DNA of 64,000 nucleotides from an uncultured Desulfobacteraceae bacterium (lineage in GTDB: Bacteria > Desulfobacterota > DSM-4660 > Desulfatiglandales > HGW-15): contig CAYQNR010000003.1 in assembly GCA_964418945.1 (NCBI GenBank), forward strand, positions 24,125 to 88,124, read 5' to 3'. The translations under genes and the position numbers were made by a program. How positions within the stretch are numbered: position 1 is the stretch's first letter; every line of letters begins with the position of its first letter. Of this stretch, positions 1 to 43,722 are shown one piece after another. Under the pieces are notes generated by a model. It was not told the DNA's origin. It worked only from the letters and a program-made list of their open reading frames with translations, and made no database searches.

Positions 1-71
1 ATAGGCTTAAAGGTAATCGGTAAAATGTATCGGAAATCATTATTCTTAACAAGACAGGAGGTCATTACTCA

Positions 72-908
72 ATGAGAAAAGTCATAATAACGGTTTCATT
101 AACCGGCGGAGTTCAGACCAAAGCCAAGAATCCCAATCTACCGGAGCAACCGGATGAGATTGCCGAGGACGCTTATAATTGTTACAATGAGGGCGCAGCC
201 ATCGCCCATATTCATGCGCGTGATAAAGAGGGTAAACCCACCGGCGATGTGGAAGTATTCAAGGAGATACATGAGACGATTCGCGCAAAATGCAATATGA
301 TCCTTCAGGACAGCACGGGCGGCGGTCCGGGGCTTACTTTCGAACAGAGGCTCTCGTGCCTTGATGCCGCCCCTGAAATGGCGTCCTTGAACATGGGTTC
401 CATGCTGAGGACCATAGGAAAAACTGCTGGCACCACATGGGCCAATCCGCGGCATGAACTGGAAAGATTCGCACAGGAAATGGCAAAAAGGAACATCAAG
501 GCGGAGATGGAGATCTACCATCACGGCATGCTCAGGGAAATGAAGAATTTTATTGATAAAGGACTTATTCAAAAGCCTTACTATGTCAATCTGGTAATGG
601 GCATGGCCTATCAGGGCGCGGTTGACGCCACTGCGGAAAACCTGATCACCCTTACCAACCTATTGCCACCTGACACAATCTTTAATTGCTGTGCGATCGG
701 GAGAGCACAGATACCCATCACCACCCTTTCCGTGCTCCTGGGAGGCAACGCCAGGGTGGGTATGGAAGATAATATATATTATTCAAAGGGAGTACTTGCA
801 AAAAGCAACGCGCAGCTTGTGGGGAAAAGCGTCGGCATCATCAAGGAACTCGGTTATGAGATTGCTTCGCCACAGGAAGCACGTGAGATACTTGGTACCA
901 TTGCCTAG
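72..908 (+). CDS. beta-keto acid cleavage enzyme (BKACE/DUF849, 3-keto-5-aminohexanoate cleavage family)
   Basis: HIHARD Zn-binding motif, STGG, ASLNMGS, RVGMEDN and ASPQEAREILG, typical of the BKACE TIM barrel. Confidence 0.93.
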   Translation: MRKVIITVSLTGGVQTKAKNPNLPEQPDEIAEDAYNCYNEGAAIAHIHARDKEGKPTGDVEVFKEIHETIRAKCNMILQDSTGGGPGLTFEQRLSCLDAAPEMASLNMGSMLRTIGKTAGTTWANPRHELERFAQEMAKRNIKAEMEIYHHGMLREMKNFIDKGLIQKPYYVNLVMGMAYQGAVDATAENLITLTNLLPPDTIFNCCAIGRAQIPITTLSVLLGGNARVGMEDNIYYSKGVLAKSNAQLVGKSVGIIKELGYEIASPQEAREILGTIA

Positions 909-959
909 TATCTATGCGACAATAATCAATTAATCAATCTATAATAGGAGGAGATTATT

Positions 960-1847
960 ATGGCCTATATGCCTCTTGACAAAAGCAAATTGTATCTTGA
1001 CAGGAATAAGATGACAAAAATTTATGACCTCAGCCAGCCCTGGGGCGTGGACACGCCCCTGTGGCCTTTTCCCGGCCCCCGACAGGATCTTATTTTCCCC
1101 CGCGGACAGTATCTGGGTCGTTTCCACAAGCGTACCATGACCTATACCGGTACGCTCCACGCCGGCACTCATATAGATGCCCCTAACCACGTCCTGCATG
1201 AGGAGGAGGTCGACCGTGAACGAAACGGGTATTCTCTCAACGAGATTCCCCTTGAATACTGCATCGGCTCCGGCGTGATCCTGGATATGCGCCATCTGAG
1301 GGATGATTTCGAGAAGAACTTCGGTGACGGCTTCAACGGCGATCTGTGGACAATACTGATGCCCGAGGATTTCGATAAGGCCTGCAAAAAGGACGGTCTC
1401 GAGATCCGCGAGAACGACTGGGTAGTCGTCAATACAGGCTGGCACCACTACTGGAGAAAAAACAACGATAAGTACTATAACTACTATGCCGGCATGGGGC
1501 CCGAGCTCGCAAAGTGGCTCACCTATGAGAAGCACATCAAGGGTATCGGCGGTACATGGGGGGCGACCGACTCCCCTCTATGGCATTCTCCCCTCAAGGA
1601 GCAGATGCCCTGGCTTGACAAGGCGTATCGCAAGGCCACCGGTAAGGACCCGGATGTTGAGTTCCCGGATTATGAGCCCTGCCATCGCATCTACATGCAG
1701 GCCGGCGTCGTCACCGTTGAGAACGCCGGCGGCGACATCGACGATGTTACTGGCAAGCGCATGACTATCGCTGCTTTCCCGTTCCGCTGCGAGATGGCAG
1801 ACGGTGGGTTTGTGCGCCTAGTCGCCTGGGAAGAGGGATCATTCTAA
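960..1847 (+). CDS. cyclase-family metal-dependent hydrolase (kynurenine formamidase-like)
   Basis: HAGTHIDAPNH = HxGTHxDxPxH signature; N-terminal YDLS; C-terminal VEN and DGGFVR; AGGAGG RBS. Confidence 0.9.
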   Translation: MAYMPLDKSKLYLDRNKMTKIYDLSQPWGVDTPLWPFPGPRQDLIFPRGQYLGRFHKRTMTYTGTLHAGTHIDAPNHVLHEEEVDRERNGYSLNEIPLEYCIGSGVILDMRHLRDDFEKNFGDGFNGDLWTILMPEDFDKACKKDGLEIRENDWVVVNTGWHHYWRKNNDKYYNYYAGMGPELAKWLTYEKHIKGIGGTWGATDSPLWHSPLKEQMPWLDKAYRKATGKDPDVEFPDYEPCHRIYMQAGVVTVENAGGDIDDVTGKRMTIAAFPFRCEMADGGFVRLVAWEEGSF

Positions 1848-2009
1848 GCCGGCTTTCCCTTTCATTGCGAGATCCTGGAGGCCGGGTGTGTTTGACCTGT
1901 GCCTCCAGCCATAAGCCGTGTGCTGGCCGGCAAAATCTGGATGGCCTGTACAATCGGCAGATTATTCAAATAGCTTAATTATTATATAATCATATTTTCG
2001 GAGGTTGCT

Positions 2010-2768
2010 ATGTTCAGACTTGAAAATAAAATCGCTGTTGTCATAGGCGGAGCGGGTGGTATCGGTAAAGCCTGCTCAACCGCCCTGGCGCAACAGGGCG
2101 CAAAGGTAGTGGTTGCCGATATGAACCTAGAAAAAGGGAAGGAAGTCGCTGAAAAGATCAATTCGGATACGGATTCCCAAGCCGTTGCAATGCCGCTTGA
2201 TGTTGGGAAAGAGGAAAGCGTTGTAACTCTTGCGGATAATGTAATAAAGAAATACGGCACGATCGATATCCTGGTTAACTCACAGGGTATCAATGCCAAG
2301 ATGCCGGCAGTCGATATTGATATTAACACATGGGACTCTCTGTTCAATGTTAACGTAAGAGGGGTTGTCCTGCCATGTAAGATAATTGGTAAGATAATGG
2401 TAGAAAAGAAACAGGGCAAGATAATCAATCTCTCTTCGGTCCGTGGCATACGCGGGACAGACGGGGGTAACGTGACTTACGGCGCAACAAAAGGATCAGT
2501 GGACATGATTACCCGCATGCTCGCCGCGGAATGGGCTCCATACAATATCAACGTTAACGCGATCGGGCCTTCTGTTGTAATGACTGAGATGATCAAGAAG
2601 GCTATTCCACCGGAACGTTTGGAGATGCTCCTTTCCAAAACGCTTTTTAAAAGATTTGTCACACCGGAAGATGTGGCGGCTGCGTGTGTCTATCTTGCAT
2701 CCAATGAGGCGGATAACATAACCGGTCATATACTCTATGTTGACGGTGGACTTACGGCGATAGGTTAG
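2010..2768 (+). CDS. SDR-family NAD(P)-dependent oxidoreductase
   Basis: GGAGGIG nucleotide-binding motif, YGATK (YxxxK), NVNAIGP, C-terminal TGHILYVDGG. Confidence 0.95.
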   Translation: MFRLENKIAVVIGGAGGIGKACSTALAQQGAKVVVADMNLEKGKEVAEKINSDTDSQAVAMPLDVGKEESVVTLADNVIKKYGTIDILVNSQGINAKMPAVDIDINTWDSLFNVNVRGVVLPCKIIGKIMVEKKQGKIINLSSVRGIRGTDGGNVTYGATKGSVDMITRMLAAEWAPYNINVNAIGPSVVMTEMIKKAIPPERLEMLLSKTLFKRFVTPEDVAAACVYLASNEADNITGHILYVDGGLTAIG

Positions 2769-2796
2769 TGTTAATTAGCCGACTGCTGATCGCCTT

Positions 2797-2875
2797 TCGG
2801 CCCTGAGCGACGCGACATGAGCCATTCGGCCTCGAGCTCATGGCCGAGAGGCTCGTCGACATGTCTCAAGGCCGA
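2797..2875. repeat. nested imperfect palindrome (REP-like intergenic hairpin)
   Basis: Outer arms TCGGCCCTGAG / CTCAAGGCCGA; inner arms GAGCCATTCGGCC / GGCCGAGAGGCTC. Confidence 0.55.
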
Positions 2876-2957
2876 TGGGCTGACCGCTGAAAGTTTCATC
2901 CTGAGATCTCAGATTTATGGATGTAAAGCAGACAGAGAATCTTATTAGAGGATCATT

Positions 2958-3920
2958 ATGAAAATCAAAGATATAAAAAAGGTATTCATAGTCGGCGCGG
3001 GGACAATGGGCCACGGCATAGCCCAGGTATTCGCCACTGAAGGATATGATGTTTCCCTTTTTTCACGAACCCGCCAGACCCTGGACAGGGCTACATCCCT
3101 TCTGGAATCCAGCCTGGCTACCCTTACACAGGAAGGACTGGTGGATAAAGAAGATATCCCGGAAATAATGGGGCGGATCAATATGACGCAGTCCCTTGAG
3201 GAAGCGTCAGCCGATGCTGATATCGCCTTTGAAACGGTTGTGGAAAACAGGGAAGCAAAGACGGATATATTCAATAAGCTGGATCAGCTATGTCCTGAAA
3301 GGACTCTCCTTGCCAGCAACACAACGGCACTCAATATCTTTGATTTCGTGAAGACCTCCAGACCGGATAAGGTCCTTATAGGCCATTGGTATACACCTCC
3401 CCAATTGATACCTCTGGTGGATATTGTTAAGGGACCGGAGACCAGCGATGAGTCTGTTATGTTAATGGCAGAATTGATCAAACAGGTAGGGAAAACCCCG
3501 CTTCTTATGAAAAAATTCAGTTCAGGCTATGTTGTTCCACGCATCCAGATCGCCACCCTCCGCGAGATATTCTACCTCCTGGATAATGATATTGTTACCC
3601 CGGAGGGCTTAGATGAAGCAGCCAAAACCGGTCTTGCACTGCGCATGATGGTACTGGGGCTCGTACAGCGCATGGATTTCGGGGGCCTTGATCTGACCTA
3701 TAAAAGTGTAAATAATCCCTATGTTCAGAGCACCCTGACGCCTCTTGATTATAAGCCAAAAAAACTGGAAGAACTGGTGAAAGCGGGCCACCTGGGAGTA
3801 AAAACTGGCAAGGGTTTTTACGACTACGGAGGTCGAAGTGAAGCGGAACTTTGTGAGGAACGAGATATAAAATTGATCAGAATGCTTAAGGCCTTTAAGG
3901 CCACGGAAAAGGACAAATAA
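2958..3920 (+). CDS. 3-hydroxyacyl-CoA dehydrogenase family protein
   Basis: GAGTMGHGIA, ETVVE, ASNT, H..P..L.PLV(D), GVKTGKGFYDY. Confidence 0.93.
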   Translation: MKIKDIKKVFIVGAGTMGHGIAQVFATEGYDVSLFSRTRQTLDRATSLLESSLATLTQEGLVDKEDIPEIMGRINMTQSLEEASADADIAFETVVENREAKTDIFNKLDQLCPERTLLASNTTALNIFDFVKTSRPDKVLIGHWYTPPQLIPLVDIVKGPETSDESVMLMAELIKQVGKTPLLMKKFSSGYVVPRIQIATLREIFYLLDNDIVTPEGLDEAAKTGLALRMMVLGLVQRMDFGGLDLTYKSVNNPYVQSTLTPLDYKPKKLEELVKAGHLGVKTGKGFYDYGGRSEAELCEERDIKLIRMLKAFKATEKDK

Positions 3921-3931
3921 CAAAATAGAGG

Positions 3932-6520
3932 ATGAACAATAAAGCCCCCCGCGATACCAACGGTGAAAAAAAGATAATTAGAGGGCTGGGATTCTGTTCC
4001 ACTACCGCCGATAGTAACAGCGTTCAGGTGGAAGTAAGCGACGGTAAAATTGTCAGAATAAGGCCCCTGCATTACGATTGGGAATATAAAGATCTCAAGC
4101 CCTGGAAGATGAAGGCCAGGGGCAAGATCTTCCAGCCTCCCATGAAAACCCTCATTCCCCCATTCAGCCTAGGATACAAAAACCGCGTCTATTCCCCCAA
4201 TAGGATTCTCTATCCCATGAAAAGGGTGGACTGGGATCCTGACGGAGAAAGGAACCCCCAAAACAGGGGAGTCAGTAAATATGTCCGTATATCCTGGGAT
4301 GAGGCTATTGATATTATAGTCAAGGAAATAGAGAGGATAAAAAAACAATACGGCATGGAGGCCATACTCTCCCAATCCGACGGGCACGGGGAGACATATT
4401 GCGTGCACGCCGCTCATGGAACCCATAGAAGACTGCTCAGTCTTCTGGGCGGCTATACCCTTCAGACCAGGAACACGGACAGCTGGGAAGGCTGGTACTG
4501 GGGCGCCAAGCATGTATGGGGCTGTGAGACAAACGGGTTTATGGATCCCGTGACCAATGTTGTCTGGGATGTCTCCAAGAATTCAGACGCTGTTTTCTTC
4601 TGGGGCTGTGACCCCGAGACTACCCCATGGGCATTTGACGGACAACTGGCCAGCCGTTTATGCTATTGGTTTACGGATATAGGAATTAAGTCGGTCTACG
4701 TGTGCCCTGATCTCAACTACGGGGCAGCGGTTCATGCGGATAAATGGATCCCTATCCGGCCTAACACCGATGCCGCCCTTTATCTGGCGATTGCCTACAT
4801 GTGGATAACCGAGGGGTCCTATGACCAGGAGTACTTGAAAACCCATGCCGTAGGCTTTGAAAAATTTAAGGAATATATCCTGGGGATCGAGGACGGCACC
4901 CCTAAAACACCAAAATGGGCCGCAGACATAGCCGGGGTTCCATCATATACCATAAAGGCCCTGGCCAGGTACTGGGCCAGACACAGGGTGAGTATCGCCA
5001 TCGGTAATGGGGGACCCGGAATCAGGGGGCCCTATTCAACGGAACCTGCCAGGCTGCAGGTCTTGCTGCTCGCCATGCAGGGCTTAGGCAAACCCGGAGT
5101 CCATCAATTTAAAATGCTCGAATGGGGGTTATATAGTCAAAAGAGGAAAAATCCCCTTCCCTGGCCTAAATATATCCCTGACATACACAACATTCAGCGA
5201 GGCTGGAAATATACCGATACCCCACGTCAATTTATCCCCAAGAATCTGATACATGATGCTATATTGCGCCCTCCCATAACATGGTACGGGACCACGCTTT
5301 CCCGTGATTATACCGAACAACAATTTATCCAATACCGTTTTCCTTTGGAGGATGCCCCCGAGATACATATGATATGGACCGACAGTCCTTCCTGGGTAAC
5401 CTGCTGGAACAATACCAACGATTTTGCTCAGGCCATCAGGAGCCCCAAGATCGAATTCATGCTTGCCCAGCACCCATGGTTCGAGAACGACTGTCAGATG
5501 GCGGACATCATCCTCCCCACCCCTACGGTAATGGAATGTGATGATTTCGGTGTGGAGGCCATGAGCGGGCAGTTTTGCGCTGTTTTCCCCGAACCCCGGG
5601 CCATCGAACCCCTGGGAGAATCTAAAAGCCATTATGAAATCGCCTGCATGATCGCCGAAAGATTCGACCTGCTGGAAGAATATACGGAAGGCAAAGGCGT
5701 GGAAGAATGGATCAAGACAGCCTATGAAAACTGTGGCGCATCCTCTGATATAAGCTGGGAACAATTACAGGATAAAGGTTATTATGTAGTCCCTCCTGAT
5801 GAGAACTGGGAGATGTACGAACCAGGTCTTTCATCGTTTTATCAGGATCCGGAAAAGAATCCCCTTAGCACGCCCAGCGGGAAGATAGAGTTTTATTCCG
5901 AAAGATTGGCCGAAAAATTCCCGGGTGATAAGGAACGTCCCCCTGTGCCCCACTGGATATCTCAAGGCGAGCATCACCAGGAAACGCTTTCATGCAAGAG
6001 GGCTGAAACCTATCCACTACTCGTGGTTTCTAACCATCCCAGATGGAGGACCCATTCACAGCATGATGATATGACATGGCTCCGGGAAATACATACATGC
6101 AAGGTTAAGGGGCCCGACGGGTACCTCTACGAGCCGGTATGGCTTAACCCGGCAGATGCCCGCCCCAGAGATATAAAAGACGGGGATATAATAAAGATAT
6201 TCAATGATAGAGGCGCTCTTCTGGCCGGTGTATGGCTAACTGAAAGGATCAGGCCCGGGGTAATATATATAAACCACGGCGCGCGCTGGGATCCTATCGT
6301 CCCCGGCGAACTTGACAGAGGCGGGAGTATTAACACCATAACCCCCCACAAGACCACATCAAAGAACGCAACCGGCATGGTATCCAGCGGCTTCCTCGTA
6401 GATATCGCTGTGGCGGACTTAGATGAGATCAGGAAACAGCATCCGGAGCCTTTCCGCAGGCCGTATCACCAAGGAGCGGGTCTCAAGGTGGACCGCATGC
6501 TGATGCACGATGAATCGTAA
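3932..6520 (+). CDS. Mo-bisPGD oxidoreductase large subunit, pyrogallol transhydroxylase (AthL)-like
   Basis: ARGKIFQPP.KT, RILYPMKRVDWDPDGERNPQNRG, RISWDEA, DSWEGWYWG (Ser Mo ligand), ADIILP, TPSGKIEF, SNHPRWRTHSQ; no Tat signal and no N-terminal Fe-S motif. Confidence 0.85.
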   Translation: MNNKAPRDTNGEKKIIRGLGFCSTTADSNSVQVEVSDGKIVRIRPLHYDWEYKDLKPWKMKARGKIFQPPMKTLIPPFSLGYKNRVYSPNRILYPMKRVDWDPDGERNPQNRGVSKYVRISWDEAIDIIVKEIERIKKQYGMEAILSQSDGHGETYCVHAAHGTHRRLLSLLGGYTLQTRNTDSWEGWYWGAKHVWGCETNGFMDPVTNVVWDVSKNSDAVFFWGCDPETTPWAFDGQLASRLCYWFTDIGIKSVYVCPDLNYGAAVHADKWIPIRPNTDAALYLAIAYMWITEGSYDQEYLKTHAVGFEKFKEYILGIEDGTPKTPKWAADIAGVPSYTIKALARYWARHRVSIAIGNGGPGIRGPYSTEPARLQVLLLAMQGLGKPGVHQFKMLEWGLYSQKRKNPLPWPKYIPDIHNIQRGWKYTDTPRQFIPKNLIHDAILRPPITWYGTTLSRDYTEQQFIQYRFPLEDAPEIHMIWTDSPSWVTCWNNTNDFAQAIRSPKIEFMLAQHPWFENDCQMADIILPTPTVMECDDFGVEAMSGQFCAVFPEPRAIEPLGESKSHYEIACMIAERFDLLEEYTEGKGVEEWIKTAYENCGASSDISWEQLQDKGYYVVPPDENWEMYEPGLSSFYQDPEKNPLSTPSGKIEFYSERLAEKFPGDKERPPVPHWISQGEHHQETLSCKRAETYPLLVVSNHPRWRTHSQHDDMTWLREIHTCKVKGPDGYLYEPVWLNPADARPRDIKDGDIIKIFNDRGALLAGVWLTERIRPGVIYINHGARWDPIVPGELDRGGSINTITPHKTTSKNATGMVSSGFLVDIAVADLDEIRKQHPEPFRRPYHQGAGLKVDRMLMHDES

Positions 6521-7344
6521 TGGGCAAAGTCTTAATCATAGATCTTACCAAGTGCAATGGATGTCATAACTGCCAGATAGCCTGCAAGGATGAACATGTG
6601 GGCAATGATTGGTCTCCCATTGCCGCACCGGAGCCCTTAACCGGGCAATTCTGGGTCAAGGTCTCTGACACAGTCAGAGGATCCTTTCCCAAAGTCAAGG
6701 TGGCTTATCTCCTTACCATCTGCCAGCATTGTGATAATGCCCCATGCATAGACGCCTGCCCGAATGGGGCCATATATAAAAGATCCGACGGCATAGTGAT
6801 AATTGATCCTGAAAAATGTAAAGGGAGTAAGAATTGCATTGAGGCTTGCCCTTATGAAGGCGTGATTTATTTTAATGAGGATCTCAACATAGCACAGAAA
6901 TGCACCTTCTGTGCGCACCTTATTGATAAAGGCTGGGAAGAGACCAGATGCTCCGATGCCTGTCCCACGGGCGCCCTGACCTTTGGCGAAGAGGATGAAC
7001 TGGAAGATCTGATTGCCGAGGCCGAAACACTCAAGCCTGAATTGGGAACAAGGCCCAGAGTCTATTACAAAGGCCTGCCCAAGAGATTTATCGCGGGAAC
7101 CGTCTTTGATCCCAAAGCCGATGAGGTGCTGATAGACGCGGAAGTTGATATTCTCAATATTTCCAACGGGAAACACACATCGGCACGTACCGATGATTTC
7201 GGTGACTTCTGGGTGGATGGATTACTCCCGGACAGATATACCGTTATTATCAGAAAAAGCGGCTATTCTGAAAAAAGGTTGGACACTGACATTACCGGCA
7301 AAGATGTCAACCTCGGCGATATAGCCATGCACGGCGAGTTATGA
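6520..7344 (+). CDS. 4Fe-4S small subunit (DmsB/AthS-like) with C-terminal beta-sandwich domain
   Basis: CxxCxxCxxxC, CxxCxxxxCxxxC, CxxSxxCxxxC, CxxC..CxxxC; ELGTRPRVYY and TDDFGDF tail as in transhydroxylase beta subunits; start overlaps the upstream stop. Confidence 0.88.
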   Translation: MGKVLIIDLTKCNGCHNCQIACKDEHVGNDWSPIAAPEPLTGQFWVKVSDTVRGSFPKVKVAYLLTICQHCDNAPCIDACPNGAIYKRSDGIVIIDPEKCKGSKNCIEACPYEGVIYFNEDLNIAQKCTFCAHLIDKGWEETRCSDACPTGALTFGEEDELEDLIAEAETLKPELGTRPRVYYKGLPKRFIAGTVFDPKADEVLIDAEVDILNISNGKHTSARTDDFGDFWVDGLLPDRYTVIIRKSGYSEKRLDTDITGKDVNLGDIAMHGEL

Positions 7345-7649
7345 GGATAATAGTAAATATACACTCGGACCTGGCCGCCCAAATAGCAGGATGGAGGGCC
7401 AAGGCGGTTCAGGTTAATGATAAAAGGGAAGCTGAACTGGAGGAAGCGCTTAAAGCGGTCGCGCTTGCGGATGGGGGCAATCTGTATGACTACATCACCA
7501 ACGAAGATCGTTTAAGCTGTGATTGGCTATTATTCGTGAACGGAATCCGTATTCCTGTCAATTCCGCCCTTAAAAGAACAATTAAGGATAATGTCCAGAT
7601 CCACTTAATCGATAATCCGCAAATCACCCCTCTGCCTTCGGCGGGGTGA
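7341..7649 (+). CDS. MoaD/ThiS-like ubiquitin-fold protein (atypical C-terminus)
   Basis: Size about 100 aa, LFVNG..I....L....IKDNVQIHLI pattern, ends SAG; overlaps the upstream stop. Confidence 0.55.
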   Translation: MRIIVNIHSDLAAQIAGWRAKAVQVNDKREAELEEALKAVALADGGNLYDYITNEDRLSCDWLLFVNGIRIPVNSALKRTIKDNVQIHLIDNPQITPLPSAG

Positions 7650-8922: not shown

Positions 8923-8999
8923 TGGGGTGAGTGATGGGACTTGAACCCACGACCGCTGGGGCCACAACCCAGTGCTCTTCCGACTGAGCTACACTCACC
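8923..8999 (-). tRNA. tRNA-His (GTG)
   Basis: Reverse complement GGTGAGTGTAGCTCAGTCGGAAGAGCACTGGGTTGTGGCCCCAGCGGTCGTGGGTTCAAGTCCCATCACTCACCCCA: cloverleaf, GTG anticodon, G-1, C discriminator, encoded CCA. Confidence 0.97.
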
Positions 9000-16738: not shown

Positions 16739-17767
16739 TTACCCCCCTATACTGTTCATGGAGCGAGCGCATTTCCGCAGATTGTATATATTAATGCCAT
16801 GGTCTTCCGGTTTATTCTTGATCGTATCCTTTATCAATTCCAGCAAATAGCTGTCCTCTTTCCCCTGCCTCAGGGGTGTTTTGATATCCGTCTCATGATC
16901 AGAGAAAAGACATCCCCTCAAATTGCCATCCGCCGTTAAACGGAGCCGGTTGCACTTTTCGCAAAAATGATGGCTTAAGGCCCCTATGAATCCTATTTCC
17001 CCTTTGGCCCCTTCCAGGATATACCGCCGGGCAGGGCCGTCAAGGGACTCTGAATCCACACGCCTGAGAGGCCCCAAGCACCTGATCCGAGCAAGGATTT
17101 CTTCGACAGAGAGGAATATCTCGGGGTTCCATATATTTCTTTCACCAAGAGGCATCATTTCGATAAAACGCACATGGTAGGGCTTGTTATAGGTAAGCCG
17201 TGCAAAATCAAGTATCTCGTCGTCGTTTACCCCTTTCATTGCTACTATGTTGATTTTGATGGGATTTAATCCGACAGTCTCAGCTTCTTCAATCCCTCTC
17301 CATACCCGATCAAAATAATCCCGCCTCGTAATATGGCGGAATCTTTCCGGTCTCAGGGTGTCCATGCTCACGTTAATACGGCGAATTCCGCAATTATACA
17401 GGGGACGGGCAAATTCCTTGAGAAGAACACCGTTGGTGGTCAATGTGATCTCCTCCAATCCATCGATGTAACCAAGCCTCTCGATAAAGGATATAATACC
17501 CTTTCTAACTAAAGGCTCCCCGCCGGTGAGCCTTACCTTCCGGATACCGTGCATGGCACAGAGACCAACCACCTGGAGAATTTCTTCGTAACTCAATATT
17601 TCGCTGTGGGGAGTAAAACTTACGCCTTCCTCAGGCATGCAATAAATACACCTCAGGTTACAACGATCGGTCAGGGAAAGTCGCAGGTAGTTGATGATCC
17701 GGTGGTTGTTATCCAGGAAACCGTCCATCGAATTGGAAATATTTGGTGATATCATTTTCTGCATCAA
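16739..17767 (-). CDS. moaA: GTP 3',8-cyclase (Moco biosynthesis radical SAM)
   Basis: YLRLSLTDRCNLRCIYC, RLTGGEP, FCEKCNRLRLTADG..RGC, C-terminal IGG. Confidence 0.96.
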   Translation of the reverse strand: MMQKMISPNISNSMDGFLDNNHRIINYLRLSLTDRCNLRCIYCMPEEGVSFTPHSEILSYEEILQVVGLCAMHGIRKVRLTGGEPLVRKGIISFIERLGYIDGLEEITLTTNGVLLKEFARPLYNCGIRRINVSMDTLRPERFRHITRRDYFDRVWRGIEEAETVGLNPIKINIVAMKGVNDDEILDFARLTYNKPYHVRFIEMMPLGERNIWNPEIFLSVEEILARIRCLGPLRRVDSESLDGPARRYILEGAKGEIGFIGALSHHFCEKCNRLRLTADGNLRGCLFSDHETDIKTPLRQGKEDSYLLELIKDTIKNKPEDHGINIYNLRKCARSMNSIGG

Positions 17768-20314: not shown

Positions 20315-22234
20315 CTAATAATCGACCGAAGGGAAAAGCTTCCTGTCCGTGTGGGGAATGAACATGGCCGCCACATATTCATCCATGAACGGCTGATAAT
20401 TAGACAGCTCGAGATTGGTCATGTTTTTTGCCACCCACAGGGCACGTTCCATGGTATGCGTCGATAAAAGGCACATGCGGGCGCCCATAAGGGAGCTGTT
20501 GCCCACGAACTGTATCCTTTCCGGATCAATGTCCGGTAAGAGCCCTATGCCGATCGCTTTGGGTATATCCAGATAGCTCCCGAAACCGCCGGCCACATAG
20601 AAAATAGAGATATCCTCAAACCCCAAACCCACATAATCCATCAGGGATTTTATGGCCGCAAACACCGCTCCCTTGGATCGAATCAGATGGCTGACGTCCG
20701 ATTGGGTGATGACAATATCCCGGCCTGTTTCCGTTTGGTCGGCAGGGGCTACTAGGAACTGGATCTCGCCGTCTTTCTCCAGGAACCTCTCATCCTGTTC
20801 AGAGGGTCGAAATTTGCCTCCCCCGTCGATGAGATGATTTCGGGCCAGTTCATACAGGCAGTCTATCAACCCTGAACCACAAATACCATTGACCTTTGAT
20901 TTGCCGATAGTTTCATACTCTACCTGGCCGTCGGAGATTATAAGCTTCTCAATAGCTCCCCCGGTAGCACGCATTCCGTGGGTGATACCCCCGCCTTCGA
21001 AAGCCGGCCCGGCAGAGGCGGAGCAACACAGCATCCAGTCATTATTTCCTATGGCTATTTCGCCGTTGGTCCCTACATCAATAAGAACCTTGATTTCAGG
21101 TCTGTCGGCAATTCCGCAGGCAATGACCCCGGACACAATATCCCCGCCCACATAGCTGGCCACTCCGGGCAATACCTCAAGGATGGCCTCCGGGTGAATG
21201 TTAATCCCGATTTCGGCGGCACGCACCTGGGGATATGCATTCACAGTGGGCACATAAGGATTCAGACGAATCGAGCAAGGGATCAGAGAAAGCAGCAAAT
21301 GGCTCATGGTGGTATTTCCCGCCGCCACCATGCAGGTAATTTCGCTGGGATCAATCCCCTTCCCCTCTATAAGCCTGTTTATTAGTTGGTTTATATTCTT
21401 CACCACGGCCCTGTGTAAGGGATTGAGCCCTTCATCCTTGCCGCATGCGTATATCATCCTGGAGATGACATCCTCGCCAAAACGGGACTGCTGGTTGTAG
21501 CTTCCGGCCACGCTGAGAACATTTCCTGATTTCAGATGGATCAACTGGGCAACGATGGTTGTAGTGCCCACATCTACCGCAAGGCCATAGTTCTTCTCAG
21601 TAGTGTCCCCTCCCTCCACCTGCAGAATTCTATGGATATCGCCGTGTTTGGCAATGGTTGCCGTTGCCTTCCACTTGTTACTCCTCAATTTGTAGGCAAG
21701 TCCTTGAAGACAACGCAAAGAGATCTCGAAATCTTTATATCCCGTCTTCTTCCTCAACCCCCTGACGACCCGATCAATATCACTTATATTGTCATCAATC
21801 GAAGGTTCTTTGACCTCCACATAGATCTTTTGCACCAGAGGTTCATATAACGTCATGGGGTCGACGGCAACCCGGTGGAGAGAGATCTTCTCCGGTTCAC
21901 CATATTCAACGGGGGTGTGCTCCAGGAGTATCTGGGCTTCGGCAAGACGGGATTCGGCCGGGATCAACACCTCCATGTCTGAATCCACCTTTGTCTGGCA
22001 GGCAAGGACATAGCCTTCCATAACCTCTTCCTTGGACAGCAGGCTTATGGAGTGCTTATCTGCGCGTATCCTGCCGTTGCTTACTTTGACCCGACACCTC
22101 CCGCAGACGCCTTTCCCCCCGCAGAGATTATTGATATGGACCTCCGCCTTTTCCGCGGCCTCCATCAAGGTCTTGCCTTTTTCGATCTCCACAACCCTAT
22201 CATCTGGTAAGAATGTTACCTTACACGTTTCCAT
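20315..22234 (-). CDS. ASKHA/DUF4445 reductive corrinoid activator (RACo/AcsV-like) with N-terminal 2Fe-2S domain
   Basis: CGGKGVCGRC...LACQ, AVDVGTTT, FGEDVISR, AGNTTM, VGGD, DVGTNGE, AGPAFEG, GICGSG, AGGFG, GNSSL. Confidence 0.92.
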   Translation of the reverse strand: METCKVTFLPDDRVVEIEKGKTLMEAAEKAEVHINNLCGGKGVCGRCRVKVSNGRIRADKHSISLLSKEEVMEGYVLACQTKVDSDMEVLIPAESRLAEAQILLEHTPVEYGEPEKISLHRVAVDPMTLYEPLVQKIYVEVKEPSIDDNISDIDRVVRGLRKKTGYKDFEISLRCLQGLAYKLRSNKWKATATIAKHGDIHRILQVEGGDTTEKNYGLAVDVGTTTIVAQLIHLKSGNVLSVAGSYNQQSRFGEDVISRMIYACGKDEGLNPLHRAVVKNINQLINRLIEGKGIDPSEITCMVAAGNTTMSHLLLSLIPCSIRLNPYVPTVNAYPQVRAAEIGINIHPEAILEVLPGVASYVGGDIVSGVIACGIADRPEIKVLIDVGTNGEIAIGNNDWMLCCSASAGPAFEGGGITHGMRATGGAIEKLIISDGQVEYETIGKSKVNGICGSGLIDCLYELARNHLIDGGGKFRPSEQDERFLEKDGEIQFLVAPADQTETGRDIVITQSDVSHLIRSKGAVFAAIKSLMDYVGLGFEDISIFYVAGGFGSYLDIPKAIGIGLLPDIDPERIQFVGNSSLMGARMCLLSTHTMERALWVAKNMTNLELSNYQPFMDEYVAAMFIPHTDRKLFPSVDY

Positions 22235-29968: not shown

Positions 29969-30812
29969 TAAATCCTTCGGCTTTCAAGACAATATCACCT
30001 TCATTAACGCCGATATCGGCGGCAATTACATTACACTTAGCCTTTAACAAAAACAATATGGGCCGTCTTTTCCCTGACAGGGCCTCATAGTTGCCCTGCC
30101 CCTTACTTATGATTAATTCTGAATTGTCATAAAGTCTCTTGAATCCATCATTACAAGTTTCAAGGACGGTCCCGGGCGCGTCGGTCCCGGAAGATAATAT
30201 GGTGGCAACCTTATCAATACCTGCTTCTGCTGCGTCTTCGTATATGGCGTCATTTATAACCGGCACCTCCCTTACTATATATATAACCGGTTTCTTTATT
30301 TCCTCTATCAGAATTCTGTCAAAGACACATTCACCGGCATTATCTCCAATATATAAGATTGTGCTGACTTTATTCAGGTTTTCTTTGAATGTCCCATAGT
30401 CACATATGGCGAAATCCTTATCAAGGACATCATCCATATCATCCTTCAGATCAAAATTCGAATTAACTCCAAAGTCTATCACATTTCCGGCAATAGCAAT
30501 TCTAATAGCGCTCAGAAGTCTGTCCTTTGACTTCTCCAGATGTTTTTTCATATAGGGATAAAGAGACAGCGCCTTTTTGGTATTTTCCTTTTTTATTTCT
30601 CTATAGGGGTCAGGATTCCCCGTAATCTCACTTATCTTTTTATAGATTATCCTCCCGGTTTCAGGGGGAGAGCTCTCCAGAGGGATCTCCCTAAGCATCA
30701 TGCCCACTTCGTCTAATACCTCCTTGATCTTCTTTTTATCATCTGTTGCTATCCTCGCGGCTCGGAGCGCCTGGGACATAAAGCAGGGGAAACAGTCAAG
30801 ATATGTCTTCAT
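29946..30812 (-). CDS. ARMT1/DUF89-family metal-dependent phosphatase
   Basis: MKTYLDCFPC, DPY...K, GNVIDFG, DNAGE, SKGQGNYE. Confidence 0.92.
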   Translation of the reverse strand: MKTYLDCFPCFMSQALRAARIATDDKKKIKEVLDEVGMMLREIPLESSPPETGRIIYKKISEITGNPDPYREIKKENTKKALSLYPYMKKHLEKSKDRLLSAIRIAIAGNVIDFGVNSNFDLKDDMDDVLDKDFAICDYGTFKENLNKVSTILYIGDNAGECVFDRILIEEIKKPVIYIVREVPVINDAIYEDAAEAGIDKVATILSSGTDAPGTVLETCNDGFKRLYDNSELIISKGQGNYEALSGKRRPILFLLKAKCNVIAADIGVNEGDIVLKAEGFNGDQGKS

Positions 30813-30838
30813 TTTCCCAAATCCTATCTTCAAAAATG

Positions 30839-31720
30839 TGGTTCATCCGCTTAATGAGTACATAAAGAAATAAAAGATCAGACCTTATTTTCTGAGTAGG
30901 TTAATGGCCCATGGAGGCTCTCTTTTACGCGGCGAAAGTATTAACAGCATGCTAATTACGCAAGGTGCCACCCAGGCGGGCGGAATAGTTATGAGATAAT
31001 AGAGAATTTTTGACTGGGGCCAAGTCTGACAAAGGGTACCCGCCCGCCTCGTCTTGTCTTATGCAGGGTCACTGCACATAAACGAGTTCGCCGCTTAAAA
31101 CAGAACCCCATGGCCCATATAGCACAATATATCATCACGTAAGGTCACGGCTGTTCTTGGAAAGACGACATCTCAAAAAGAATTCCACCCAAGGCCTGCA
31201 GTGGGCTTATTTTCAAGGGTTTGCTCTACCAGACCCCTGGCAGAATATACCGTTGGAACCAGGAAAAGGTTTGCCAAACCCTTGAAAATAAGAGCACGTC
31301 CACTGAATGCCATAGATGTCGTCTTGAAAAGAACCAGCTGTGACCGGATATTAGGGATACCTTTATCCAGTCATGATATTTTGGTCCAATCGGTTAATGA
31401 GTACGTAAAGAAATAAAAGATTAAACCTTATTGTAAGTACCTTAATGGCCCATGGAGGCTCTCTTTTACGCGGCGAAAGTATTAACAGCATGCTAATTAC
31501 GCAAGGTGCCACCCAGGCGGGCGGAATAGTTATGAGATAATAGAGAATTTTTGACTGGGGCCAAGTCTGACAAAGGGTACCCGCCCGCCTCGTCTTGTCT
31601 TATGCAGGGTCACTGCACATAAACGAGTTCGCCGCTTAAAACAGAACCCCATGGCCCATATAGCGCAAAATGTTTAGTTTAGATATCATCAACTAGCGTA
31701 CTCATTAACCGGATGAACCA
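30839..31720. repeat. non-coding array: 23-bp motif, cassette A, cassette B, 23-bp motif, identical cassette A', inverted 23-bp motif
   Basis: 30901-31123 identical to 31442-31664 (223/223 by eye); cassette B 31143-31345 with perfect arms 31206-31223/31275-31292 and 31162-31173/31314-31325; motif copies at 30839, 31382 and 31698 (inverted). Confidence 0.85.
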
Positions 31721-31791
31721 AAATGTCTTGTTTTATTTTTCCGGTCTTCGTCGAGATCATATATAATTATTTACCTTTTTCTTTCAAGGCA

Positions 31792-32028
31792 CTAATTAAT
31801 ATGCCTTATTGTAATGGCATGTAATCGACAGGCCTCCAAACAATCCCCGCAGCCCATGCACATATCCTGAAATACAATGGGAGGCTCGAAAGCTCCGTCT
31901 ATCTGGGTCAGAACCTTATGTGTACACGCCTTTGCTGCTTCGCAAATACCTGTCTCCGGGTTGCACTTGCTTGGATCACATATATCGTAATCTACAAAAG
32001 CGAATTCCTTTTTTGGCTGAATAGACAT
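31792..32028 (-). CDS. small 4Fe-4S ferredoxin (RLI-type N-terminus)
   Basis: AFVDYDICDPSKC...C...C and CMGCGDCLEAC. Confidence 0.8.
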   Translation of the reverse strand: MSIQPKKEFAFVDYDICDPSKCNPETGICEAAKACTHKVLTQIDGAFEPPIVFQDMCMGCGDCLEACRLHAITIRHIN

Positions 32029-32375
32029 TTGAACCTTCTATTAAATATAATATTTAACATAAATATAAAAGTGGCACATTTCAAGATGGGCGAATCCTAT
32101 ATTAAGTCGTTTTAATGCTTAGAATCATATAAGTATCAAATATCTAAACATGTAAAATGCTCAAAACATCCTTCTGTTAGGAATAAGAGGGACCAATCTT
32201 CCTAAAGAAATAGACGCCGACCATCTATAATCAGGAGAATTAGATAAACTTATGAATGGTAGGGGGTCCGAATCAAACAGGGAATTAGATGGAGGCTCTT
32301 ACAGATTAGTATTACGCAAGATTTTAACCGGGCCCTGTTGCTTCTAATTCAGTTCATTAAGGAGCCCGCAAATAA

Positions 32376-34247
32376 TCAAGAAGATAAATGTCTGTCTATT
32401 CCCTCCGCGGCTATTTTGGCGTCAGCAATGGCGGTTACCGCATCCAGATTTGTATTGACAATATCGCCGCCGGCAAAGACCTTTTCTATGGTGGTCTGTC
32501 CGTTCTCATCAACCTTAACCTTCCTTCTCTCGGTAAACTCAAGTTTCGCGAAAAGTTCTTCAGGTATAAATGAAAAATCTGTCCTCTGGCCGATGGCCTC
32601 GATTATCATATTCCCTTCCAGGAACATCTCTTTATCCTCATAAAAGGTAGGACTGAATCTGCCTTGCTCATCAAACACCGATTTTACCTTCACGCACTGA
32701 AGACCTTTTACCTCTCCTTCTTCACCTAAGACGACCTCCTTCGGCCCCCAGGCGGGATTAAAGCGGATTCCCTCCTCTTTTGCCTCTTCTATCTCATCTT
32801 CTTTTGCCGGCATTATATCCCAGTCTTCCAGAGACACGGTCTGGGTCATAATCTCTTTTCCCGGGTGCTGAATATTCTGCAGTCGGAGGGCCACCCTGGC
32901 CACATCCATGGCTACATTACCTCCGCCTATCACAACGGTCTTTTCACCTACTTCAACGGCCCTCCCGAGCTTATTATCTTCCAAGAAATTAAGCGCCAAA
33001 AGGCACTTTTCAGCATTCTTGACCCTGGTTGAATTGCTCCTGGTAGTCCCTATTCCCAGATAGACCGCATCGTAATCTCTCCTAATATCCTCGAATAGAA
33101 GATCTTCCCCCACAGTTGTATTAAACCTGAATTCAACCCCAAGAGAAGCAATATAATCCACATCTTGATCAATCGCCTCTATGGGCAATCTATAAACCGG
33201 GGGACCGATTCTCATGGTTCCTCCTCCACCCGGCAGAGAATCAAATACTGTTACCTCATGTCCTTTAAGCCTCAAAAAATAGGCCACTGACAGGCCCCCT
33301 GGTCCCGCGCCGATAACAGCAACCTTTTTGCCCGTAGGTTTACCCGGTTTAAGCTCTAAAGCAGTCTTGTAATCCCCAATAATATCAGCGACATATCTCT
33401 TCAGCCACCTTACAGCTACGGCCTCTCCTCTTATACTCAGGGAACATGCGTCTTCACAGTATTTCATGCATACCCTTCCACAGATAGCAGGAATCGGATT
33501 ATCTTCAAATATCTTCTTTAAAGACTCTTCCGGTTTATCTTCGTAGATTGCCCGGATATAGTCGGAAATCTTTAAATGGGCCGGACAGGCCTCTTCACAT
33601 AATCTACATTCCAGGCATCTGGATGCCTCCTTCTTTGCCTCCTCTTTGCTATAACCTATAACCTGCTCTATAAAGGATAGTTTCCTTGCCTCAGGCCTTA
33701 CCTCAGGCATTGGGACTCGTTCCGGTTCAAATAAGGAATATTCGAGATCGGATGAAAACCCCTCATAATCCTTTTTACGGTGGCTCAGGCTTGCCTTGAG
33801 CACGGAATATTCCTCAGCAGGGAAAAAATGTTCATTGTCCAACTTTTCATCTTTGGGGATGAAAGTAAAAGTGTCTGTATCAAAATGGATATGAAAATAG
33901 TCCCTGGAGAGGCTTAAGGACCCGGGAGGACATATATCTACACAGAGACCGCAAAAACAGCATCTGCCATAGTCAAGCCTGGGTCTTTCATTTTTTATCC
34001 CCTCTTTTGGTTTGCTCGCTAATTCAGGTATCTCTACCATCTCAATTGCTTCGTTAGGGCATATATCAGCACAATTACCGCACCCGGTGCATTTATCCCA
34101 GTCGTTAAGATGGAAACCCCTATATCTTAAAGCAGGCTCTTTAGGTTCGAAAGGATACCTCAAGGTCTTCGGTCTCTTCCAGAGAAACCTGATAGCTTTG
34201 AATGCCCCTAAAAAACTCCCTTTGTTTTTTTCTAATTTTTCCATCAT
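32376..34247 (-). CDS. NuoI/MbxN-like ferredoxin fused to GltD-like FAD/NAD(P)H oxidoreductase
   Basis: T..YPFE, CTGCGNCADICP, CCFCGLCVDICP; then SRCLEC..CEEACP, ICGRVC..YCE..C, GAGPGG, GGGNVAMD, FAGGD. Confidence 0.9.
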   Translation of the reverse strand: MMEKLEKNKGSFLGAFKAIRFLWKRPKTLRYPFEPKEPALRYRGFHLNDWDKCTGCGNCADICPNEAIEMVEIPELASKPKEGIKNERPRLDYGRCCFCGLCVDICPPGSLSLSRDYFHIHFDTDTFTFIPKDEKLDNEHFFPAEEYSVLKASLSHRKKDYEGFSSDLEYSLFEPERVPMPEVRPEARKLSFIEQVIGYSKEEAKKEASRCLECRLCEEACPAHLKISDYIRAIYEDKPEESLKKIFEDNPIPAICGRVCMKYCEDACSLSIRGEAVAVRWLKRYVADIIGDYKTALELKPGKPTGKKVAVIGAGPGGLSVAYFLRLKGHEVTVFDSLPGGGGTMRIGPPVYRLPIEAIDQDVDYIASLGVEFRFNTTVGEDLLFEDIRRDYDAVYLGIGTTRSNSTRVKNAEKCLLALNFLEDNKLGRAVEVGEKTVVIGGGNVAMDVARVALRLQNIQHPGKEIMTQTVSLEDWDIMPAKEDEIEEAKEEGIRFNPAWGPKEVVLGEEGEVKGLQCVKVKSVFDEQGRFSPTFYEDKEMFLEGNMIIEAIGQRTDFSFIPEELFAKLEFTERRKVKVDENGQTTIEKVFAGGDIVNTNLDAVTAIADAKIAAEGIDRHLSS

Positions 34248-35341
34248 CTGTCTATTTCCGGAGCAACAACATATAGGCTTATCATGATATTGCCCACATC
34301 GGCAATGCTGGCATCTTTTAACAACCTTTCCAGAATGGTCAACCCATGAGTATATGAAGGGGTCCTAAAGTTTACCCTATAGGGTTTATCCCCGCCATTG
34401 CTTACCATATAAAGACCTAACTCTCCTCTGGAAGACTCAATTCTTACATAGGCCTCTCCTTTTGGAATTTTCCATTTGAACGGGTTAAGCACCTTACTAT
34501 ATGCCTTTCCTTGAGGCATAGCGTCAAGGAGCTTGAATATCATATGAACGCTTTCTATCATCTCGTTCCTTATTACCCATATCCTCGAATAGGCGTCACC
34601 GTCTTCCCTTGTATGAACATCCCAGTCTATACTATCATAAGCGGCATAGCTTTCGACTTTCCTTACGTCATATTTTACGCCTGTAGCCCTCAGGACCTGG
34701 CCCATCGCCCCGAGCTTCTTTGCGTCTTCCCGGGTTATTTTCCCTATATCCTTGGCCCTATCGTAAAATAAACGGTTGTTAAAAAAGGTGGAATCATAAT
34801 CCGGCACACAGCCCCCTATGGAATGCAGGGTATTCACAATCCTATCCTTGAATCCCTCCGGGAAATCGCGCCTTACTCCACCGGGCCAGATATATATATG
34901 ATATACCCTCCCCCCTGTAAGTTCCTCAAAAAGGTCCAGGATAAGATCCCTGTGATACATGGCCCATTGAGCAACAGTATCAAAACCAAGCATATTGGAA
35001 TAGGCCCACAAACCAAACAGGTGGGAAGAGACCCTGGAAAGCTCCAGATATACGCTCCTTATATAGTGCGCCCTTTCCGGGACCTCTATATTGGCCAGTT
35101 TCTCAACGGCCATTGCATATACCATTTCCATTGGATCAGGTTCCACCACATTTATCCTGCATACCAATGGAAAGTTCTGTATCCAGGTCCTCAGTTCCAT
35201 GAGTTTTTCAAAACCTCTATGCAAATACCCGGGGTTGGCAGTCGCCTCCAGGATACGATCGCCTTCAACCTTTAAGGTAATGCTGAAGTTGCCTACCATC
35301 CCCAGATGCTGGGGTCCAAAATATAGTTCAAGTTCTCTCAT
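34244..35341 (-). CDS. mbxL: NuoD-like subunit, MbxL/MbsL type, without NiFe-binding CxxC motifs
   Basis: FGPQH, ANPGYLHRGFEKL, EELTGGRVYHIY..PGGVRRD, ES.RGE, KPYRV, C-terminal PEIDR. Confidence 0.85.
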   Translation of the reverse strand: MRELELYFGPQHLGMVGNFSITLKVEGDRILEATANPGYLHRGFEKLMELRTWIQNFPLVCRINVVEPDPMEMVYAMAVEKLANIEVPERAHYIRSVYLELSRVSSHLFGLWAYSNMLGFDTVAQWAMYHRDLILDLFEELTGGRVYHIYIWPGGVRRDFPEGFKDRIVNTLHSIGGCVPDYDSTFFNNRLFYDRAKDIGKITREDAKKLGAMGQVLRATGVKYDVRKVESYAAYDSIDWDVHTREDGDAYSRIWVIRNEMIESVHMIFKLLDAMPQGKAYSKVLNPFKWKIPKGEAYVRIESSRGELGLYMVSNGGDKPYRVNFRTPSYTHGLTILERLLKDASIADVGNIMISLYVVAPEIDR

Positions 35342-36445: not shown

Positions 36446-36449
36446 TGAA

Positions 36450-40722: not shown

Positions 40723-40787
40723 TTATACCGACCATGCTCCTTGAAAAAACATAATCATTGTCACCAACATAACATTTCTAACAGGTC

Positions 40788-42072: not shown

Positions 42073-42090
42073 CCGTTTAGAAATATATTT

Positions 42091-42672: not shown

Positions 42673-42745
42673 AAGGTAATCCTCTTAATATTCTAATATA
42701 CAAATAATGCTATATACACATAATAGGATATATATCTCAAAAAAA

Positions 42746-43512: not shown

Positions 43513-43722
43513 ACACTTGCTCTAAAAAATTGCATTACGATAATCTTCACACCATTTTCAATGATTAGAAAAATATTTGATATATTCGCATACCACAAAA
43601 TTTCCGTATTGCAAACAAAAATATCTTCGCATCGGAGCCCCTGTGTATCCGATCATTACGAGCATAGCCCCTTTAACATAAAGAGAGATCTTGTGTCAAG
43701 GTCATTTTTAACGCTTAAATAT

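Follow-up and report, generated by a model that had tools for sequence, protein, structure and literature searches.

What does a run of co-directional genes encoding a β-keto acid cleavage enzyme, a cyclase-family hydrolase, two dehydrogenases and a molybdenum enzyme do at the left end of a 64,000-nucleotide stretch of DNA (hereafter the window) from an uncultured Desulfobacteraceae bacterium? An earlier note on this DNA had proposed that positions 72-7344 hold a complete anaerobic cluster for trihydroxybenzene and phloroglucinol degradation, in which the upper and lower pathways are joined. Trihydroxybenzenes, which derive from tannins, flavonoids and brown-algal phlorotannins, are a main route by which polyphenol carbon enters anoxic food webs in peat, sediments, the rumen and the gut. 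To our knowledge, one ring-opening gene set (from Clostridium scatologenes) and one transhydroxylase (from Pelobacter acidigallici) have been assayed so far. Here we find that the transhydroxylase step and the ring-opening steps are physically linked in many uncultured anaerobes, that the whole pathway comes in two co-varying versions, and that a third, much larger clade of molybdenum enzymes recurs beside both. With moderate confidence, we read the cluster as a variant pathway that would lead from pyrogallol or another trihydroxybenzene through a phloroglucinol-type compound to acetoacetate. We infer the functions of the cluster throughout from sequence and synteny.

Gene content of the cluster

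Seven co-directional open reading frames (ORFs) occupy positions 72-7649 of the forward strand of the window, according to the ORF calls and their translations (Table 1). The five kinds of gene on which the earlier note had built were all confirmed, with exact ORF positions: a BKACE, a cyclase, an SDR, a 3-hydroxyacyl-CoA-dehydrogenase-family enzyme (HAD) and a transhydroxylase-like Mo enzyme, whose large and small subunits we term TH1L and TH1S. HAD, TH1L, TH1S and a terminal ORF, orf102, are translationally coupled: an 11-nt spacer with AGAGGA separates the HAD stop codon from the TH1L ATG at 3932, TH1L and TH1S meet in a TAATG overlap at 6520, and TH1S and orf102 in an ATGA overlap at 7341. 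From this spacing and these overlaps alone we infer co-transcription.

The near-identical locus L001 (4 mismatches to the window in 10.9 kb) reaches 9.9 kb further left, with window position 1 at its position 9930. Upstream of BKACE it carries a regulator of the AraC family and another AthL/AthS-like pair, TH2L and TH2S; since near-identical contigs have these genes at this place, the window starts mid-cluster. The identical BKACE protein is encoded by 22 of the metagenome contigs examined. The full cluster, in the order AraC, TH2LS, BKACE, cyclase, SDR, HAD, TH1LS and orf102, spans approximately 12.4 kb. Thus the genes proposed for 72-7344 are indeed there, and the extent is corrected at both ends: orf102 belongs to the cluster too, and AraC and TH2LS are cut off on the left.

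Table 1 Coordinates of the cluster genes in the window and, where marked L001, outside it.
Feature	Position	Strand	Basis or remark
AraC-family regulator	L001 5204-6100		Directly upstream in the cluster, outside the window
TH2L, second AthL-like gene, 838 aa	L001 6280-8796		Outside the window
TH2S, second AthS-like gene, 279 aa	L001 8799-9638		Immediately upstream of BKACE, outside the window
Tail of the 362-bp spacer that separates TH2S from BKACE	1-71	+	L001 comparison
BKACE-family β-keto acid cleavage enzyme, 278 aa	72-908	+	PF05853, E 3e-95
Cyclase-family metal hydrolase, 295 aa ('type B' cyclase)	960-1847	+	PF04199, E 3e-30
Classical SDR, 252 aa	2010-2768	+	Pfam adh_short, adh_short_C2
3-Hydroxyacyl-CoA-dehydrogenase-family enzyme (HAD), 320 aa	2958-3920	+	3HCDH_N and 3HCDH
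TH1L, large bis-molybdopterin guanine dinucleotide (bis-MGD) Mo subunit, transhydroxylase-like, 862 aa	3932-6520	+	PF21423 (AhtL-like_1st), PF00384 (Molybdopterin), PF01568 (Molydop_binding)
TH1S, small Fe-S subunit, poly-ferredoxin, 274 aa, partner of TH1L	6520-7344	+	Fer4_11 (4Fe-4S dicluster) and C-terminal CarboxypepD_reg β-barrel
orf102, coupled 102-aa ORF	7341-7649	+	ATGA overlap with the TH1S stop codon

Two lineages of Mo/Fe-S enzymes

Both Mo/Fe-S pairs find their best PDB matches in the pyrogallol hydroxytransferase of P. acidigallici, TH1L in its large subunit AthL (4v4c_A; 465 bits, 4e-138, 35% identity) and TH1S in its small subunit AthS (4v4c_B; 1.5e-55, residues 5-268). The TH2L/TH2S pair has the same domain set and the same best matches, and TH2L aligns with AthL over its full length (880 bits, 47% identity). 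The two large subunits of the cluster are 39% identical to each other. The residue numbering of AthL was verified on the PDB sequence. The Mo ligand Ser175, together with Asp174 and His144, is kept in TH1L, in TH2L and in all clade members examined (D-S-W-E-G-W motif and aligned His). In AthL, Tyr152, Arg153 and Tyr404 are reported to be the residues for substrate and co-substrate (Messerschmidt 2004). TH2L keeps both tyrosines and has Lys in place of Arg153. All three residues are absent from TH1L, which has Ala-Ala at 152/153 and no alignable FPGY(404) motif, and which also has N- and C-terminal extensions relative to AthL.

In a neighbour-joining distance tree of 114 large subunits (no bootstrap; RehL and DbhL sequences not included), clade I is AthL-like and consists of Ia, with AthL, and its sister Ib, with TH2L; TH1L falls in a separate and much larger clade II. 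Signature motifs agree with the tree: SSHHMWGNVGYRH / FPGYAEGGISGD for Ia, SSHHNWGxVGYK / FPGYADP for Ib and SDGHGETxxVHAAHG for clade II. The kinship with AthL that had been expected of the window's Mo enzyme is therefore found in the pair upstream of BKACE: TH2L is the sister-group relative, just outside the window, and TH1L, on its identity, clade and lost residues, is not an AthL orthologue. We propose that TH1 is a paralogue of TH2 with a different substrate pocket.

Clade II is widespread. A scan of GTDB species genomes returned more than 580 relatives; the best 80 are 51-69% identical to TH1L and represent Actinomycetota, Dehalococcoidia, Anaerolineales, Clostridia, Eggerthellaceae/Gordonibacter, Desulfobacterota and Bathyarchaeia. 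Multiple putative 'pyrogallol hydroxytransferase' operons had been noted earlier in Chloroflexi (PMC3971608, PMC4959651). In some Actinomycetota loci (L018 1-17400; L029; L020), clade II Mo/Fe-S pairs, as many as four in tandem, lie beside one AthL-type pair and a canonical dihydrophloroglucinol cyclohydrolase (DPGC), a tandem expansion that resembles the pattern of catechol dehydroxylase paralogues.

Some annotations point away from aromatic compounds. The JGI names of cluster members include 'S/N-oxide reductase-like' and 'TMAO reductase', and the NCBIfam bisC_fam model matches with 395 bits, as would be the case if the pairs were respiratory or detoxifying S- or N-oxide reductases of the DMSO/TMAO type. 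However, the bisC_fam score compares with a cutoff of 1017, that for TorA is 305 against 909, and among PDB chains TH1L matches pyrogallol hydroxytransferase with 465 bits and DMSO reductase with 267. The N-terminal domain PF21423, specific to AthL, and the C-terminal β-barrel specific to AthS are both present, and synteny with the ring-opening modules is conserved. Neither TH1L nor TH2L has a twin-arginine (Tat/RR) motif at its N terminus and no membrane-anchor gene was found in the cluster, which fits a cytoplasmic enzyme like the P. acidigallici transhydroxylase. We regard the oxide-reductase reading as very improbable.

The four candidate ring-opening genes

DPGC is a cyclase-family enzyme, the (S)-3-hydroxy-5-oxohexanoate dehydrogenase TfD a 3-hydroxyacyl-CoA-dehydrogenase homologue and the triacetate acetoacetate-lyase TAL a BKACE (Zhou 2023, PMC10470551), just as the earlier note had stated. 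The sequences CsDPGC, FpDPGC and CsTfD were rebuilt from the OCR'd (optically read) supplement alignment of Zhou 2023, and identities to them are approximate. Among characterised enzymes, the window cyclase has its nearest relative in DPGC: the cyclase is 30% identical to CsDPGC over the full length (E 1e-27), and its match to isatin hydrolase is partial only. It keeps the metal-binding HxGTHxDAPxH, EPCH and VEN motifs and the DPGC-specific Trp (Trp20). Its own, 'type B', family is compact and numbers 19 representatives at E ≤ 1e-30; representatives of canonical DPGC (the UniRef50_E3PU66 group, 310-345 aa, versus 295 aa) rank about 46th among its matches and are more distant members of the same cyclase-family branch. 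We refer to modules with canonical DPGC as type A.

The window HAD carries the HWYTPPQLIPLVD motif, as TfD and free-acid HADs do (TfD-like NPP..IPLV). At residues ~196-201 it has GYVVPR in place of GF[IV]ANR; in a separate sub-lineage of type-B HADs (L082, L092 and L096) the Asn of GF[IV]xNR is kept. The translated SDR shows the Tyr-x3-Lys motif and an Asp after β2, which suggests a preference for NAD(H). It has no NCBIfam equivalog above cutoff, and no phloroglucinol reductase chain was present among the best 60 of its 100 PDB matches (E ≤ 1e-30) or among the 3 PDB matches of an SDR from a type-A cluster (E ≤ 1e-40). Relatives of the window BKACE (58-83% identity) adjoin type-B cyclases, and relatives of the SDR (51-71% identity) are conserved beside them.

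We propose that these four genes are a type B counterpart of the phloroglucinol pathway of C. scatologenes, one that shares its families and logic and belongs to separate lineages. The SDR is a candidate reductase for the keto tautomer of the ring substrate, and the cyclase a candidate ring-opening retro-Claisen hydrolase, analogous to DPGC. The HAD is a candidate dehydrogenase of 3-hydroxy-5-oxohexanoate or an analogue, and the BKACE a candidate triacetate (3,5-dioxohexanoate):acetyl-CoA cleavage enzyme.

The BKACE and HAD families also serve lysine fermentation (Kce) and carnitine catabolism (carnitine dehydrogenase and the cleavage of dehydrocarnitine), and the four genes might belong to one of these pathways and lie by chance beside the Mo enzymes. 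For BKACE the best NCBIfam model is indeed the lysine-fermentation enzyme Kce (NF052387), as is the best PDB match (Kce, 2y7d), and carnitine dehydrogenases are among the HAD-family enzymes. Yet the Kce score is below cutoff (297 bits versus 382), carnitine dehydrogenase models reach 93-116 bits against cutoffs of 414-592, and no kamA, kamDE, kdd, kal or carnitine genes were found within 10 kb on either side. Neither pathway has a role for a cyclase-family hydrolase or an SDR, and in 12 loci the four genes travel with AthL-type genes. The earlier note had named kinship with carnitine- or lysine-pathway proteins as the outcome that would undo its proposal; these scores and neighbourhoods speak against such kinship, and we give this reading hardly any credence. 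Both it and the DMSO/TMAO reading were rejected.

Recurrence and pairing of the modules

The same gene set occurs, in several orders, in metagenome-assembled genomes (MAGs) of Actinomycetota, Chloroflexota, Bacillota and Desulfobacterota and on many metagenome contigs, and its recurrence across phyla in varied orders indicates that the grouping is not due to chance. A metagenome scan with type-B cyclases, which took in human-gut and bioreactor contigs, recovered BKACE, cyclase, SDR and HAD together on many contigs, mostly in the window's order; one clade is at 75-86% identity and another at approximately 60%. Accessory genes at type-B loci encode acetoacetate-type CoA-transferase A and B (7 loci each), thiolase (4), ADP-forming acetyl-CoA synthetase (5), a small cupin (13), GntR and MerR regulators, and SSF and TRAP transporters. 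The presence of CoA-transferase and thiolase fits acetoacetate and acetoacetyl-CoA as products.

AthL-type genes are linked to ring-opening modules in 16 of the fetched loci. Ia genes accompany type A in 4 of them and Ib genes type B in the other 12; there are no crosses (0/16), so that type B co-varies with Ib in 12/12. Clade II genes adjoin both module types, with at least two clade II subclades represented beside type B. Gene order also varies between loci (L093, L090, L120, L040 and L036). Together, the several subclades and differing orders argue that the association is functional and not one inherited arrangement. The proposed union of upper and lower pathways in one cluster is borne out by this recurrent synteny.

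Mo enzymes are missing from many type-B loci despite long flanks (for example, L118, L140 and L127), which argues that the module is self-contained and open to different upstream routes. In two of these stand-alone loci (L118 8295-19608 and L140 8630-16716) the module is accompanied by GntR, a LUD-domain protein, a TRAP transporter and MmgE/PrpD-family proteins, and a 111-aa cupin gene lies between the SDR and HAD genes.

Tandem short cyclases (~260 and 277 aa) were observed in a Desulfocapsaceae MAG (L076 6519-8155), beside an Ib-type gene, and in L089 (6012-7800), beside a type-B cyclase. In length and arrangement they resemble the paired UniRef50 groups A0A2E7F5Q4 and X7EAG0 of Zhou 2023 Data set S3, and may together constitute a third, heteromeric kind of ring hydrolase.

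Proposed pathway and its substrate

In the pathway that we favour, TH2 would isomerise pyrogallol-type 1,2,3-trihydroxybenzenes to the 1,3,5 pattern by Mo-dependent hydroxyl transfer, and the SDR would use NAD(P)H to reduce the keto tautomer of the ring. The cyclase-family metal hydrolase would then open the cyclic β-diketone by a retro-Claisen reaction to give a 3-hydroxy-5-oxo acid, which the HAD-family enzyme would oxidise to a 3,5-dioxo acid. Finally, cleavage of this acid by BKACE with acetyl-CoA would yield acetoacetate and acetoacetyl-CoA. TH1 would probably feed a further polyhydroxybenzene (hydroxyhydroquinone, a tetrahydroxybenzene) into this funnel, or handle a tetrahydroxybenzene co-substrate.

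Several observations weigh against this reading. Canonical DPGCs that adjoin AthL-type genes (L018, L028, L036, L037 and L040) share 79-85% identity with CsDPGC, a level maintained across Clostridia, Actinomycetota and Dehalococcoidales, versus 30% for the window cyclase, which is thus not a DPGC orthologue; it also has WPF where DPGC has WPY (substrate Tyr22 replaced by Phe) and is without the ~26-aa DPGC insertion. The window HAD is no nearer to TfD than to Hbd (35% identity to CsTfD, 36% to Clostridium Hbd), HADs of type-A clusters being 48-52% identical to CsTfD, and type-B HADs of the window's clade have Pro or Ser where GFxxNR has its conserved Asn. The window BKACE reaches 229 bits on the NCBIfam TAL model NF053538 (3,5-dioxohexanoate:acetyl-CoA acetone transferase), whose cutoff is 430. 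Orthology of the lower-pathway genes to the C. scatologenes enzymes, as suggested earlier, accordingly fails for cyclase, HAD and BKACE alike. The TAL cutoff is a weak discriminator, however, because BKACEs of type-A clusters also fall below it: those of the Actinomycetota loci L036 (canonical DPGC) and L029 score 190-204 bits and that of L040 410 (L029 is type-A-like, with an Ia transhydroxylase and a TfD-like HAD; the stretch fetched holds no cyclase). Further, Pfam searches of the window and the L001 flank place no gene for a gallate decarboxylase, a CoA-transferase, a thiolase or a transporter in the cluster. The exclusive pairing of Ib with type B and of Ia with type A could reflect a different substrate/product pair, beyond separate lineage, and the TRAP transporters, MmgE/PrpD proteins and cupin at stand-alone type-B loci suggest a carboxylated substrate in that sub-lineage.

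These observations lend themselves to a possible, if doubtful, alternative, akin to the analogous substrate for which the earlier note had allowed, in which architecture and chemistry are unchanged and the Ib transhydroxylase and type B module act on an analogue of pyrogallol and phloroglucinol. The substrate might then be hydroxyhydroquinone or a tetrahydroxybenzene, a carboxylated ring (gallate to 2,4,6-trihydroxybenzoate without prior decarboxylation), an alkyl-substituted phloroglucinol or a hydroaromatic acid. In favour of an analogue are the pairing without crosses, the divergence of the type-B cyclase from a DPGC that is otherwise ~80% conserved across phyla, the transporters of carboxylate type with their MmgE/PrpD and cupin neighbours, and the missing gallate decarboxylase. 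So are substitutions beside substrate residues, both in the type-B HAD and in Ib relative to Ia (R153K, H154M/L and S155G). Gut Clostridia (F. plautii, E. ramulus, E. timonensis and Clostridium sp. SY8519) carry canonical DPGC as well as divergent cyclases (Zhou 2023 Data set S3, PMC10470551), and this co-occurrence suggests non-redundant functions, although the F7V3T2-type cyclases of the gut are only presumptively equated with type B. On chemical reasoning, by contrast, HAD and BKACE require a 3-hydroxy acid for conversion to a 3-keto acid; the opened ring of dihydrophloroglucinol supplies it, and dihydro-hydroxyhydroquinone or 1,3-cyclohexanedione would not. The acetoacetate CoA-transferase and thiolase at type-B loci fit a C6-to-3xC2 outcome, TH2 keeps all proposed catalytic residues of AthL, and inheritance of the operon as a whole unit would give the Ia-A/Ib-B pattern with no difference in function. 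A phloroglucinol-type pathway remains the more economical reading, and the one that we prefer.

Flanks, host and distribution

Beyond AraC, L001 carries unrelated genes (rubrerythrin, inositol monophosphatase and AsmA), and downstream of the cluster lie housekeeping genes (CoaE, tRNA-His, SelA, GmhA, CysS and UvrB). A promoter-like TTGACA-17-TATTTT at L001 9756-9784, shortly before window position 1, is a candidate promoter for the BKACE-to-orf102 unit; promoter and terminator scans returned 31 matches versus 21.5 expected and 22 versus 14.2 expected, respectively, little above chance. The product of orf102 has no Pfam or NCBIfam match. Homologues (34-36% identity) directly follow the closest TH1 relatives in L007 and L031. 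A single-sequence AlphaFold (AF2) model is of low confidence (pLDDT 42.6), and the secondary-structure pattern would fit a candidate small β-grasp protein.

The population is present in more than 20 salt-marsh metagenomes. NCBI labels proteins at least 90% identical to the cluster proteins as 'Deltaproteobacteria bacterium', in agreement with the membership of the Desulfobacterota that the earlier note had considered probable. The best relatives of the cluster genes are spread over four phyla, a pattern indicative of horizontal transfer. Clustered at 90% identity, the cyclase falls into a group of 120 members (P0036 and P0039 among them), including MAGs labelled Syntrophorhabdales and Acidobacteriota; since the genes beside it have their best relatives in other phyla, the cyclase, or else the entire module, seems to have spread horizontally in recent times.

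Elsewhere in the window, a MoaA-type radical-SAM gene of Mo cofactor (Moco) biosynthesis (16739-17767, - strand) and a TOBE-domain, ModC-like ABC ATPase gene (48848-49888, - strand) are consistent with a heavy demand for molybdenum cofactor. A RACo-type corrinoid activase (20315-22234, - strand) and an Mrp/complex-I 49-kDa-type membrane complex adjoining an Fe-S/flavin oxidoreductase (32376-40722, - strand) indicate anaerobic energy metabolism, possibly acetogenic or hydrogen-cycling. G+C content is 0.39-0.44 at 30001-44000, where the Mrp/complex-I-like genes lie, versus 0.47-0.53 in the rest of the window. The sole Rfam/ARAGORN match in the window is a tRNA-His(GTG) at 8923-8998 (- strand), between coaE and selA.

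Novelty and comparison with known systems

The kind of system described here is already known; in the literature searched, we found no description of the two pathways joined in this way, of the two versions that co-vary or of the third Mo enzyme that recurs beside them. That it contains two enzyme lineages distinct from those characterised, namely clade II with a polyphenol chemistry other than that of AthL, and type B with Ib as a parallel pathway, strikes us as rather unlikely but worth stating. Clade II may represent an extensive family of Mo enzymes of the cytoplasm, with hundreds of genes and often several copies per locus, whose hydroxyl chemistry is unlike that of AthL; examples may include conversion of hydroxyhydroquinone or a tetrahydroxybenzene, or a net gain or loss of hydroxyl groups by way of the Fe-S subunit. 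Type B and Ib may constitute a second reductive pathway of ring cleavage, with a substrate ring other than phloroglucinol, such as gallate via 2,4,6-trihydroxybenzoate without a decarboxylase. Public annotations of the cluster genes are generic or misleading ('kynurenine formamidase', 'TMAO reductase-like'), and the polyphenol-degrading potential of metagenomes has probably been under- or mis-counted as a result.

The phloroglucinol pathway of C. scatologenes (Zhou 2023, PMC10470551) clusters the same four families (SDR, cyclase, 3HCDH-type and BKACE) and has a similar inferred logic: reduce, open the ring hydrolytically, oxidise and cleave with acetyl-CoA. Its cluster has a transporter, thiolase and CtfAB, all of which are absent from the window cluster, although CoA-transferase and thiolase accessory genes are shared by related type-B loci; conversely, the window cluster has two flanking Mo enzymes. 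The window BKACE is of the short, Kce-like type, unlike the C. scatologenes TAL. The survey by Zhou and colleagues counted divergent cyclases beside PGR, TfD and TAL homologues (six UniRef50 clusters) as putative phloroglucinol clusters, including those of sulfate reducers, Archaeoglobus and Mycobacterium, all of them predicted only (PMC10470551).

Like TH1, the catechol dehydroxylases of Eggerthella and Gordonibacter are bis-MGD enzymes that act on aromatic hydroxyls and belong to large, multi-copy families of anaerobes, and Gordonibacter carries clade II genes too (52% identity). The matches in Gordonibacter and Eggerthellaceae prompted us to consider clade II enzymes as catechol dehydroxylases, a reading that we rejected: catechol dehydroxylases group with acetylene hydratase, apart from pyrogallol hydroxytransferase (Maini Rekdal 2020, PMC7028382), and TH1L is far nearer to AthL (465 bits, versus 60 bits for acetylene hydratase, in PDB).

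TH1 and TH2 have in common with P. acidigallici AthL/AthS (PDB 4v4c) the heterodimer, the domain layout and the absence of a Tat signal. AthL itself lies in Ia, among enzymes that adjoin canonical DPGC, whereas TH2 lies in Ib and TH1 in clade II. RehLS of Azoarcus anaerobius and DbhLS of Thauera aromatica AR-1 belong to the same AthL-like family of Mo enzymes and act on meta-hydroxylated aromatic compounds; in these denitrifiers they feed an oxidative hydroxyhydroquinone/hydroxybenzoquinone route and not a reductive ring-opening module. In Pelobacter massiliensis, hydroxyhydroquinone reportedly undergoes sequential transhydroxylations, as Brune, Schnell and Schink are said to have described in 1992; we know of no genes or sequences for these activities. 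Funnelling more than one trihydroxybenzene isomer into phloroglucinol, as in P. massiliensis, needs more than one hydroxyl-transfer specificity, and the window cluster has two paralogous transhydroxylase-like enzymes beside one phloroglucinol-type module.

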